A stretch of DNA of 64,000 bases from Escherichia coli (GTDB lineage: Bacteria > Pseudomonadota > Gammaproteobacteria > Enterobacterales > Enterobacteriaceae): assembly GCF_050920415.1 (NCBI RefSeq), contig NZ_CP169309.1. The stretch is one strand, 5' to 3'. Of the stretch, positions 52,221 through 56,010 are shown piece after piece. A program made the position numbers and the translations under genes. Below the pieces are notes generated by a model. It was given only the letters and a program-made list of their open reading frames with translations. It had not been told where the DNA came from and did not search any database. Each line of letters begins with the position of its first letter. Position 1 is the stretch's first letter.

Positions 52221-53273
52221 ATGAAAAAGACCCGTACAGCCAATTTGCACCATCTTTATCATGAACCCTTACCCGAAAACCTGAAGCTCACGCCGAAGGT
52301 CGAAGTGGATAATGTTCATCAACGACAGACAACGGATGTCTATGAACATGCTTTGACGATTACCGCCTGGCAGCAGATTTACGATCAGCTGCATCCGGGC
52401 AAGTTTCATGGTGAATTTACGGAAATTCTACTCGATGATATTCAGGTTTTTCGTGAATACACCGGTCTGGCGCTGCGTCAGTCGTGCCTGGTCTGGCCGA
52501 ACTCGTTCTGGTTTGGCATTCCGGCGACGCGCGGTGAGCAGGGATTTATCGGTTCGCAATGTCTGGGAAGCGCAGAAATTGCGACACGCCCTGGAGGAAC
52601 CGAGTTTGAATTAAGTACGCCGGACGATTACACGATCCTTGGCGTGGTGCTTTCTGAAGATGTCATCACCCGTCAGGCTAACTTTTTGCATAACCCGGAA
52701 AGGGTGCTGCATATGTTACGTAACCAGTCGGCGCTGGAAGTGAAAGAGCAGCATAAAGCCGCGCTGTGGGGCTTTGTCCAACAGGCTCTGGCGACATTTT
52801 GCGAGAACCCGGAAAATCTCCATCAGCCTGCAGTGCGAAAAGTGCTGGGGGATAATTTGCTAATGGCGATGGGGGCGATGCTGGAAGAAGCGCAGCCAAT
52901 GGTGACGGCGGAAAGTATCAGCCACCAGAGTTACCGTCGCTTGTTGACCCGCGCGCGTGAATATGTGCTGGAGAATATGTCCGAACCGGTAACCGTGCTG
53001 GATTTGTGCAATCAACTGCATGTCAGCCGCCGCACGCTACAAAACGCGTTTCACGCTCTTTTAGGCATTGGCCCAAACGCGTGGCTGAAACGCATTCGCC
53101 TGAACGCCGTGCGCCGCGAACTGATAAGCCCGTGGTCGCAAAGTACAACGGTCAAAGATGCCGCCATGCAGTGGGGATTCTGGCATCTGGGGCAATTCGC
53201 CACGGATTACCAGCAACTGTTTGCCGAGAAGCCGTCTCTGACGCTACATCAGCGGATGCAGGAACTGGAGTGA
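52221..53273 (+). CDS. eutR: AraC-family transcriptional activator of eut operon
   Basis: 350-aa ORF with C-terminal AraC-type HTH. Confidence 0.9.
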
Positions 53274-53349
53274 GGGTGAGGGCCGGATGAGGATGGTGTT
53301 TGATCCGGTCCATAGTGAAGTTACAAATTACGTTGAATTGCTATGTATT

Positions 53350-53667
53350 TTATTGCCCAACGGGATAGGCGATAAACAAACCGACAATTGTCAGAATACA
53401 CGCCAGCAGGAATACCAACATACAATTTACGCGCTTTCGCGAAATTTTAAATAAATAGCAAAATAGTGTTGTTACCACGATCACTACCGGGATAGTCATA
53501 AAATTAATAACGATGAGTGCTATCAATCCAAAACTTGCTCCTCCACCGTGGGGAATAAAAATGTGTTCTTCAAAATAAACTTCTATAGCAAATGCCAGCA
53601 CACATCCCAGAAAACTCATATCCAGATGAGGGTGCCATTTACTTTCTTTATTTGATGTGTCTGACAT
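53350..53667 (-). CDS. Hypothetical small membrane protein (3 predicted TM helices), accessory
   Basis: 105-aa ORF in markedly AT-rich DNA; GGGAG SD ~9 nt upstream of ATG; hydrophobic segments; no K-12 counterpart at this position that I recognise. Confidence 0.6.
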   Translation of the reverse strand: MSDTSNKESKWHPHLDMSFLGCVLAFAIEVYFEEHIFIPHGGGASFGLIALIVINFMTIPVVIVVTTLFCYLFKISRKRVNCMLVFLLACILTIVGLFIAYPVGQ

Positions 53668-53707
53668 TCTTAAATGCTCCCGTGAGCAAACTGGCGCAAA
53701 ATAATTT

Positions 53708-54970
53708 CTAAGATTGCTGATAAGACGTCGCTGTTGTCCGGCACTCCGGGCAGATAAACGCGTAAATTATCCCTTCGCCATATTGTTCAATATCGGCATA
53801 ATCCAGTTGCGCAAGAAACATCATTGTGTGGGAACATTGCGGACAGAGAGGATATTCCGCGTCCTGAATCCAGGTTGGATGCCCGCCAAGTTGCGAGAAA
53901 GAGACAGGTAAAAATGGGTCTGCGGCAAATAACGGTGACCTAAGGTTTCCCTGTCTCATGCTGTTTACAGGGAGTCGACGCCATTCCGATACATCATCCG
54001 GCAGCCAGGCAGGCGGGATATTTTTTGCAGACAAATGAGCGTTACCCTTTGAGTCCATGTAGCCGAAAATGGTGCTGTAGGCGGTGCAACATTCGCAAGT
54101 CACGACGCGAAAACTGCCGTTATCGCTAAGACCCGTTGCCTTCAGGTCAACGTCGAAAAGATTTGTTAGGGGCAATGCGCACTTTGGACAGGTATCGCTG
54201 CGTTCATCAACAACACGCAAAGCTTCGCAAGACCCGGTGCTTTTCATCTCCAGATGAAAACATTGAGGAAAATAGAGATTACGCCTTTGATCTTCAGCGG
54301 TTAACTCCCAACCGGCCTCATGCGCATATTCTTCTGGCGCGATGTAAAGTGAACTGCGCCACAGCGGCGGGTTATTGCGCCAGTAGGCAAAACGTTCAAC
54401 AACAACGTCATCCCCAATCCATGCCAGACATTGCAGAATACAATTTCTGTTTTCTGCATCATCCTCAACCCGTTCTAACAGCGTATCGCGAACATCCGCT
54501 GGGGCGCGGTGGAAAGGCAGAGGAGAATAAGCGTCTAAATCATCATAAGAGATCCACTCTCGTAAATATGCATCCAGATTTGCCTGGGTAAACGCCGCCA
54601 GACAAAGACAAATCTCCTGAGCGTGTTCATATTCACCAGACGCAAAGCGTTCTGTGGCGTAATCAGCCATTTGCTGCGCTTGCTCGGCGGTCAACTGTTG
54701 ATACAGGGCATCGGTGGGAACGGGGCAGGGAGTCCAGTCGATTAACGCATCGAATTTCCGCGGTTGGTGAATTAATTTAAGCATGGCAACCGGATCGCTT
54801 AACCCAGCAAACGCATTCACGATCTTTTTGTTTTTCTTGATATATTCGTCGTGCTCACGCTGCTGTTGGGCCTGCTCGCAGGGCATGCAGTATCCGTTAG
54901 TACGCGCTGCGGTTTCCGGAAGAATGGTTGATGTACAAGCGGGGCTTTTACAGGGAATACGGTGAGTCAT
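53708..54970 (-). CDS. Hypothetical cytoplasmic protein with CxxC zinc-ribbon-like motifs and C-terminal DUF1963 (YwqG-like)-type region, accessory
   Basis: 420-aa ORF with AAGGAG SD 8 nt upstream; C-terminus LGGHPTWIQDAEYPLCPQC...MMFLAQLD...GEGIIYAFICPEC resembles the DUF1963 signature as I recall it; additional CxxC pairs at the N-terminus and mid-protein; absent from K-12 at this position. Confidence 0.7.
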   Translation of the reverse strand: MTHRIPCKSPACTSTILPETAARTNGYCMPCEQAQQQREHDEYIKKNKKIVNAFAGLSDPVAMLKLIHQPRKFDALIDWTPCPVPTDALYQQLTAEQAQQMADYATERFASGEYEHAQEICLCLAAFTQANLDAYLREWISYDDLDAYSPLPFHRAPADVRDTLLERVEDDAENRNCILQCLAWIGDDVVVERFAYWRNNPPLWRSSLYIAPEEYAHEAGWELTAEDQRRNLYFPQCFHLEMKSTGSCEALRVVDERSDTCPKCALPLTNLFDVDLKATGLSDNGSFRVVTCECCTAYSTIFGYMDSKGNAHLSAKNIPPAWLPDDVSEWRRLPVNSMRQGNLRSPLFAADPFLPVSFSQLGGHPTWIQDAEYPLCPQCSHTMMFLAQLDYADIEQYGEGIIYAFICPECRTTATSYQQS

Positions 54971-55107
54971 AGAGGCGCTCCTTGCCTGAGGATATTAAGT
55001 CGAAAGAGATTATTATTAGATATTAGGGTGTCACTATGGCACACAAATTAAACAGAATTAATTTCAAGCCACAAACATAGGGTTATTTTTCTTTTATTTT
55101 CATGATA

Positions 55108-56010
<903 letters not shown>

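Follow-up and report, generated by a model that had tools for sequence, protein, structure and literature searches.

The DNA analysed here (the window) is a stretch of 64,000 nucleotides of Escherichia coli (contig NZ_CP169309.1 of assembly GCF_050920415.1), and the gene under study is an open reading frame (ORF) of 420 amino acids (aa) on its minus strand, at positions 53708..54970, whose product is a member of the TYPP superfamily (TSR4/YwqG/PDCD2L/PDCD2). The ORF is complete, with an ATG start and a stop codon at 53708-53710. A Shine-Dalgarno sequence, AGGAG, can be read 7 nt upstream of the ATG (54978..54982, minus strand), and the start is supported by the N-terminus M-x-x-R-I-P-C, which is kept in homologues. 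The gene lies downstream of amiA and hemF and in the same direction as both. A scan of the minus strand in the gap between hemF and the ORF found no convincing promoter or terminator; transcription may start from the gene's own promoter or reach it by read-through from amiA-hemF. The ORF is 100% identical at the DNA level to a gene on NZ_CP169399.1 (E. coli strain MFDS1022581), an identity that covers the whole of 53200-55150 (1951 bp), and its product is RefSeq WP_000149701.1, named "DUF1963 domain-containing protein" by the Prokaryotic Genome Annotation Pipeline.

The 420-aa ORF and a smaller one, of 105 aa, make up a two-gene insert of 1831 bp (53277..55107) that sits exactly between the stop codons of eutR and hemF. 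Direct alignment shows 2 bp in place of the insert in K-12 MG1655, where hemF and eutR have coding sequences separated by 5 bp. Of 5426 complete E. coli genomes, 25 carry both genes of the segment in full.

Twelve cysteines of the protein fall into three groups of four. Site 1 is C7-x4-C12 ... C28-x2-C31, with the full spacing C-x4-C-x15-C-x2-C; site 2 is C261-x2-C264 ... C292-x2-C295; and at site 3 LGGHPTWIQ (361-369), C376-x2-C379, MMFLAQLD (382-389) and C407-x2-C410 follow one another. These are the places at which a preliminary description of the sequence had put three cysteine clusters. When 26 homologues that share 37-82% identity with the query are aligned (mean column identity 53%), 11 of the 12 motif cysteines occur in every sequence and C410 in 25, and all the cysteine pairs are conserved. 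The protein has 20 cysteines in all, and seven of the eight that lie outside the motifs occur in merely 1-11 of the 26 homologues. Because the motif cysteines are selectively conserved relative to the others, the motifs are meaningful and not due to chance. The three sites probably bind zinc. The protein is soluble and cytoplasmic; a Kyte-Doolittle maximum of 1.16 over a 19-residue window agrees with the earlier observation that it has no transmembrane segment.

An AlphaFold2 model built on the 26-sequence alignment (mean predicted local distance difference test score 92.6, predicted template modelling score 0.86) consists of a zinc ribbon with a long helix (1-47), a short linker, ten helices (86-219) and an all-β region (221-420). 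The preliminary description had found nothing recognisable in the first ~250 residues. In the model they hold instead an N-terminal Cys4 zinc ribbon (C7, C12, C28, C31) followed by helix 29-47 (residues 1-47; 54830..54970, minus strand) and an α-helical repeat domain of the HEAT/ARM-like type (residues 86-219; 54314..54715, minus strand). The closest structural zinc-ribbon match to the N-terminal ribbon is NrdR. The remainder divides into two probable TYPP repeats. Repeat 1 (residues 220-345; 53936..54313, minus strand) has A-G-W (219-221) in the place of GGxP and contains the Cys4 site C261/C264/C292/C295. Repeat 2 (residues 346-420; 53711..53935, minus strand) contains the Cys4 site C376/C379/C407/C410, the stretch S359-Q-x-G-G-x-P-x-W-x-Q-D and a conserved C-terminal T-A-T-x-Y-Q-Q-[ST]. 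G362, G363 and P365 of its GGxP are invariant in the 26 sequences, as is Q388, and they align with the GGxP and with the glutamine of FLAQI, respectively, in canonical DUF1963. Profile-profile comparison of 215-345 with 346-420 brings the CxxC...CxxC units into register, as a weak match (E 1.2e-3, probability 19%); the strand pattern of the model and the structural alignment with YwqG given below also favour two repeats.

The predicted model matches the fold of the solved YwqG structure (PDB 1PV5): the all-β domain aligns structurally with the two-repeat YwqG over 161 residues, at 11% sequence identity. Since the all-β region of the model spans 221-420, the DUF1963-like part is the whole of ~220-420 and not the last 60 residues alone. 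In sequence searches the Pfam DUF1963 model (PF09234) scores 24.0 bits (independent E-value 5.8e-5), with query residues 359-406 set against model positions 1-51 of 216; this is the sole stretch matched by PF09234 (53753..53896, minus strand). The same model is found at E<=0.001 in 13 of the 26 homologues and at E<=0.1 in all of them. The match and the conserved cysteine pairs support the earlier DUF1963-like reading of the C-terminal region, for which a significant PF09234 match had been predicted; the predicted extent of that match, roughly residues 260-420, shrinks to residues 359-406. Comparison by hhalign of repeat 2 with canonical DUF1963 neighbours gave E 1.3e-7 and a probability of 94%, with GGxP and the FLAQ glutamine matched. 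When the C-terminal domain was compared with canonical DUF1963 in global register, hhalign returned nothing significant, and the GGxP-Q segment alone aligns.

Sequence searches of the PDB found no significant match, whether the query was the single protein or the family profile, and the PDCD2_C Pfam model does not match the 420-aa protein. Scans of the 420-aa and 105-aa proteins against NCBIfam, PADLOC and PHROGs produced nothing above noise, PADLOC-DB 2.0 yielding no families at E<=1 for either. Homologues number 145 at E<=0.001 and are mostly full-length (~420-435 aa); their sources are Enterobacteriaceae, Chitinimonas, Paenibacillus and metagenomes. When 1.84 billion cluster representatives were searched with the family profile, 2741 clusters were retrieved at E<=0.001, 538 of them at E<=1e-30; the larger set probably also includes proteins that have just the TYPP motif in common. 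Nearly all of the 150 relatives among the matches listed share the helical and TYPP parts (profile positions ~85-423), and many are without the N-terminal ribbon or have additional helical repeats in its place. The conserved core is the helical arm plus the TYPP domain, because so many relatives are without the ribbon. No enzymatic fusions were seen among the relatives, whose variant N-termini are extra helical repeats only. One relative, P0103 (667 aa, Paenibacillus sp.), has DUF2625 (PF10946) fused ahead of a complete ribbon, helical and TYPP protein; a literature search on DUF2625 found nothing. Foldseek against AFDB50 recovers the same architecture across phyla, including Campylobacter showae M5IMH0.

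This architecture has a counterpart in the literature. Burroughs and Aravind (2014, Front Genet 5:424; PMC4275035) united DUF1963/YwqG with the eukaryotic TSR4, PDCD2 and PDCD2L as the TYPP superfamily, defined by two repeats, GGxP, a conserved Q and sporadic CxxC pairs. In their "family two" the TYPP domain is usually accompanied by an uncharacterised N-terminal α-helical domain, sometimes with a C4 zinc finger before it, and the finger of some members was classed as of the RNA polymerase-binding dksA/traR type. A C. showae sequence, which may be M5IMH0, served as the bridge between their families. The 420-aa protein has the helical domain followed by TYPP, the N-terminal C4 finger, the GGxP motif, the glutamine and the CxxC pairs, and on this architecture is assigned to the prokaryotic family two branch. 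It differs from the published account in two respects: the E. coli finger does not score as DksA/TraR, and the gene context described below is absent from that account. A DksA/TraR identity for the finger was considered and rejected, there being no match to zf-dskA_traR (PF01258) in the query (E<=10) or in the 26 homologues (E<=0.1), and the nearest structure being NrdR.

Compared with YwqG itself, to which it is 11% identical and whose Pfam model matches 48 of its residues, the E. coli protein has a shorter TYPP domain (~200 aa) without a canonical second GGxP, and it has two Cys4 sites, an extra zinc ribbon and a helical domain that YwqG does not. The eukaryotic PDCD2, PDCD2L and Tsr4, likewise TYPP proteins, contain two repeats in which GGxP and CxxC-like motifs are found; PDCD2 has a further zinc module, MYND. 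Between them and the 420-aa protein neither a direct sequence match nor a structural one was obtained, and they are essential and conserved, whereas the E. coli gene is rare and dispensable. PDCD2 has been shown experimentally to be a chaperone of ribosomal protein uS5; the activity depends on the GGxP/CxxC-like motifs, mutation of which abolishes client binding, and Tsr4 binds the unstructured N-terminal segment of uS5, an extension that is eukaryote-specific (PMC7736825). The statement in the preliminary description that DUF1963 proteins have no established biochemical function must be qualified to that extent, since a chaperone is known within the superfamily.

In Enterobacteriaceae the gene is always found immediately downstream of hemF, in six lineages: E. 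coli, E. albertii, an uncultured Enterobacteriaceae bacterium, Superficieibacter, a Klebsiella-like species and Salmonella. Five E. coli alleles are intact although they differ by up to 10% in DNA. Their ratios of nonsynonymous to synonymous divergence (dN/dS) are 0.22-0.33 against 0.02-0.06 for eutR, with dS about equal. The intact alleles and these ratios indicate a real gene under selection, and together with the dS similar to that of eutR they indicate that it is functional, long resident and fast evolving. The 420-aa protein is 55-60% identical to its counterparts in the Klebsiella-like species, Salmonella and Superficieibacter; for hemF the identity is 86% with both the Klebsiella-like and the Superficieibacter copy, and 92% over a partial Salmonella fragment. 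Recent horizontal acquisition was considered, and is less likely than ancestral presence followed by loss, given the position downstream of hemF in six lineages and the dS equal to that of eutR.

E. coli strains differ in what they carry between the stop codons of eutR and hemF, which makes this junction a variable spot. Strain E7-1N7 has a TacA antitoxin/GNAT toxin pair added there (locus L002, 4867-5659). Strains A37 and A25 have a 1149-aa SNF2-related gene adjoining the TYPP gene (loci L097 and L099, from 4370), and in A25 eutR, which has an internal stop, is listed as a pseudogene beside an intact pair of insert genes (L099, 1522-2574).

Five clinical isolates of Salmonella Agona have been reported with a 74.6-kb resistance island flanked by IS15DI, RGI_SA5, inside a gene for a "DUF1963 domain-containing protein" (PMC12054066). 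The interrupted gene is probably the Salmonella orthologue, and the insertion suggests that it is dispensable there. By coordinates, the RGI_SA5 site adjoins the insertion site of another island, labelled "etuA" (probably eutA).

The second gene of the insert (53350..53667, minus strand) lies 40 bp past the stop of the 420-aa ORF, is convergent with eutR and encodes a small hydrophobic membrane protein of 105 aa. Its G+C content is 38%, against 53% for the window, which the ancestral-presence view leaves unexplained. The protein is 50% identical to the Klebsiella-like neighbour, annotated as Pfam YpfK (PF26378), and 64% identical to the Salmonella one. The YpfK label comes solely from precomputed annotation of the Klebsiella-like and Salmonella orthologues; the 105-aa ORF itself has no match in the Pfam library used, and a literature search on YpfK found nothing relevant. 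The two genes are in swapped order in Salmonella, and the small gene is absent beside the homologues in Superficieibacter, UBA3516 and every non-enterobacterial locus. The linkage between the TYPP gene and the YpfK-like gene is loose, because of the swapped order in Salmonella and the absence of the small gene in Superficieibacter and UBA3516.

Outside Enterobacteriaceae, 80 species loci were collected, and neighbouring ORFs were clustered for 76 of them. At 20 of the 76 loci, mostly from Sporosarcina, Lysinibacillus and Solibacillus with some from Paenibacillus, the gene lies within long co-directional arrays. According to precomputed Pfam annotation, the members of these arrays include SUFU, SMI1_KNR4/SUKH, Imm10, ankyrin repeats, canonical DUF1963 (two copies), DUF6138 and a pair of AAA_33-HD and RNA_ligase genes. 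A 224-aa protein is encoded directly upstream of the TYPP gene in 13 Bacillales loci and a 130-aa family in seven, with very short or overlapping gaps to it (L051, 7308-7982; L045, 7557-7949; L095, 9308-9982; L096, 8893-9968). The 224-aa family has no Pfam or NCBIfam match, and the 130-aa family no NCBIfam match and no precomputed Pfam annotation; both are candidate partners. Among the recurrent Bacillales neighbours, c3, c13, c4, c11 and a 754-aa protein have no NCBIfam match, and c3 has no Pfam match either. In a distant lineage, Shewanella electrica, an SMI1_KNR4 gene, a 95-aa gene and the TYPP gene are co-directional with gaps of 20-30 nt (L101, 7126-9266). Heterogeneous polyimmunity loci are defined as tandem genes of unrelated immunity families, in the same orientation, with short gaps and variable between strains (PMC3482391), and the Bacillales and Shewanella arrays fit that definition. 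The preliminary description had tentatively placed DUF1963 proteins near polymorphic-toxin loci in Firmicutes; the Bacillales homologues, which lie in polyimmunity-like arrays, provide a counterpart to this, and the E. coli copy does not.

Three further observations concern these loci. The pair consisting of an AAA_33 kinase-like/HD protein and an RNA_ligase (PF09414) is conserved in the Bacillales arrays (L095, 1-1244; L096, 1545-3144), and among immunity-type genes it looks like an RNA-repair pair. The Shewanella electrica trio lies inside an island with about 20 small unannotated genes, a canonical DUF1963, DUF3916 and a CAP12-PCTIR TIR-domain gene. At one more locus (L012, 7289-13269; GCA_030012885.1, JASCQV010014960.1) a homologue is found beside KptA/Tpt1 (PTS_2-RNA), McrB, McrC and a DUF3375 gene; the last we take to be Wadjet JetA-like, so that the setting would resemble a defence island.

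The reading that we favour, while giving it slightly less than an even chance, is that the 420-aa protein is a soluble, non-enzymatic binder of the TYPP superfamily, of immunity type, and that the E. coli copy is an orphan. The immunity-type role is suggested by the gene contexts in Bacillales and Shewanella. All three modules of the protein are of protein-interaction types, which is in favour of a binding role, and the accessory, fast-evolving behaviour of the gene (its occurrence in few genomes, its dN/dS, its divergence from counterparts relative to hemF, and its variable spot) is counted in favour of the reading as a whole. The SUKH (SMI1/KNR4) and SuFu immunity proteins (PMC3482391) offer the nearest comparison: in Bacillales and Shewanella they stand in gene contexts of the same sort, they are non-enzymatic protein binders of patchy distribution and fast evolution, and have eukaryotic relatives with other roles. 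They differ in that their folds are unrelated, in that the E. coli copy is outside such arrays and in that a toxin partner is known for no TYPP protein.

On this reading the three Cys4 metal sites would be structural, with each TYPP repeat pinned by its own site. The working surface would be the TYPP groove, lined by the invariant SQxGGxPxWxQD and Q388, and the groove and the helical arm could together clamp a stretch of a partner protein that is extended or disordered, in the way in which PDCD2/Tsr4 hold the N-terminal tail of uS5. Action would be by stoichiometric binding and not by catalysis. Its partner may be an incoming toxin or another foreign or conflict protein, which would be neutralised or held, and the E. 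coli gene would be an orphan copy persisting in the variable spot downstream of hemF.

Several points weigh against this proposal. Some concern the family assignment on which it builds: sequence likeness to canonical DUF1963 is limited to ~50 residues, Foldseek against the PDB gave no match, and the family profile fails to detect 1PV5 by sequence. The four-cysteine sites could hold iron or an Fe-S cluster instead of zinc, and the functional part of the proposal, that is the partner, the toxin and the metal, consists wholly of things that we infer. Others concern context. Beside the E. coli gene no toxin or known immunity gene can be recognised, only the YpfK-like ORF, and at the loci examined no toxin gene was recognised next to the homologue either. 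At 56 of the 76 homologue loci there is no immunity context, the copies in Clostridium, Chitinimonas and most Paenibacillus looking solitary; the 20 positive loci are partly syntenic and represent only a few independent events, and their number is a raw count, uncorrected for background proximity to SUKH/SuFu genes. Zhang et al. 2012 (PMC3482391), moreover, do not list DUF1963/YwqG as an immunity family.

The best-surviving alternative, which we consider unlikely though not negligible, is that the protein serves one endogenous client as a dedicated housekeeping chaperone or assembly factor, a bacterial analogue of PDCD2/Tsr4-uS5 that would keep hold of a disordered part of a self protein until its assembly. 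The only experimentally studied TYPP proteins act in this way (PMC7736825), a chaperone-like role has been suggested for the whole superfamily (PMC4275035), and the constant place after hemF in Enterobacteriaceae, with a dS close to that of eutR, suggests long vertical residence. However, the gene is absent from 5401 of the 5426 complete E. coli genomes, K-12 included, its disruption by the resistance island in the Salmonella Agona isolates had no apparent cost (PMC12054066), and its evolution is much more rapid than that of the core genes on either side. The uS5 extension that Tsr4/PDCD2 bind is confined to eukaryotes (PMC7736825), and no client gene conserved across taxa adjoins the TYPP gene.

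A two-gene module with the YpfK-like membrane protein appears decidedly unlikely. In it the TYPP protein would be a sensor and the membrane protein an effector, in phage defence or abortive infection, or the two would form a membrane-targeted immunity pair. The genes are adjacent and co-directional, with the 40-bp gap, in E. coli and the Klebsiella-like species and are linked, with their order swapped, in Salmonella; the variable spot also collects a toxin-antitoxin pair and an SNF2-related gene; and one homologue lies beside McrBC and a DUF3375 gene. Yet neither protein matches any PADLOC model, the YpfK-like gene is missing in Superficieibacter, UBA3516 and all non-enterobacterial loci, and the swapped Salmonella order argues against tight translational coupling.

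Two other proposals we regard as very improbable. A transcription-associated factor, in which a DksA/TraR-type C4 finger would enter the RNA polymerase secondary channel and the remainder would be regulatory cargo, could draw on the dksA/traR class of some family-two fingers (PMC4275035) and on the long helix 29-47 that follows the finger, but the lack of any PF01258 match and the C-x4-C-x15-C-x2-C spacing speak against it, and the many relatives without a finger imply that the finger is not the functional core. An enzyme, for instance a peptide-modifying one with its active site at the conserved-glutamine pocket or one whose Cys4 sites carry redox-active Fe-S clusters, is hardly to be expected either: the invariant Q388 falls in the deep pocket that YwqG has at the conserved Q, and catalysis was raised as a "more radical" option by authors who themselves saw no enzymological precedent for it (PMC4275035), but the invariant polar residues that cluster in the alignment are limited to R344, S359, Q360 and Q388, and Pfam, NCBIfam and the PDB gave no enzyme-family matches.

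Part of what is described here was already known, namely the RefSeq DUF1963 annotation of the accessory gene and the family architecture, which was described computationally in 2014 (PMC4275035). What is added is the complete TYPP domain with two probable, presumably zinc-pinned repeats, the variable spot between hemF and eutR, and the recurrent polyimmunity-like context of the family. From that context comes a functional hypothesis that can be tested. The E. coli allele is convenient in this regard: it is small, soluble, confidently modelled and naturally absent from K-12, which allows clean gain-of-function tests. If the protein is indeed a binder, or of immunity type, this would provide the first testable function for bacterial TYPP proteins, a family whose profile matches ~2,700 clusters at 50% identity (E<=0.001). 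A wider proposition, possible but doubtful in our view, is that TYPP proteins, comprising family two and canonical YwqG/DUF1963, form a widespread and so far unlisted immunity or toxin-holding class of polyimmunity loci, of which the E. coli gene, perhaps with its YpfK-like neighbour, would be an orphan immunity cassette that shields the rare strains carrying it from one particular toxin of a competitor. If it is true, the eukaryotic uS5 chaperones PDCD2 and TSR4 would descend from a bacterial conflict protein, as has been proposed for the SUKH and SuFu superfamilies.

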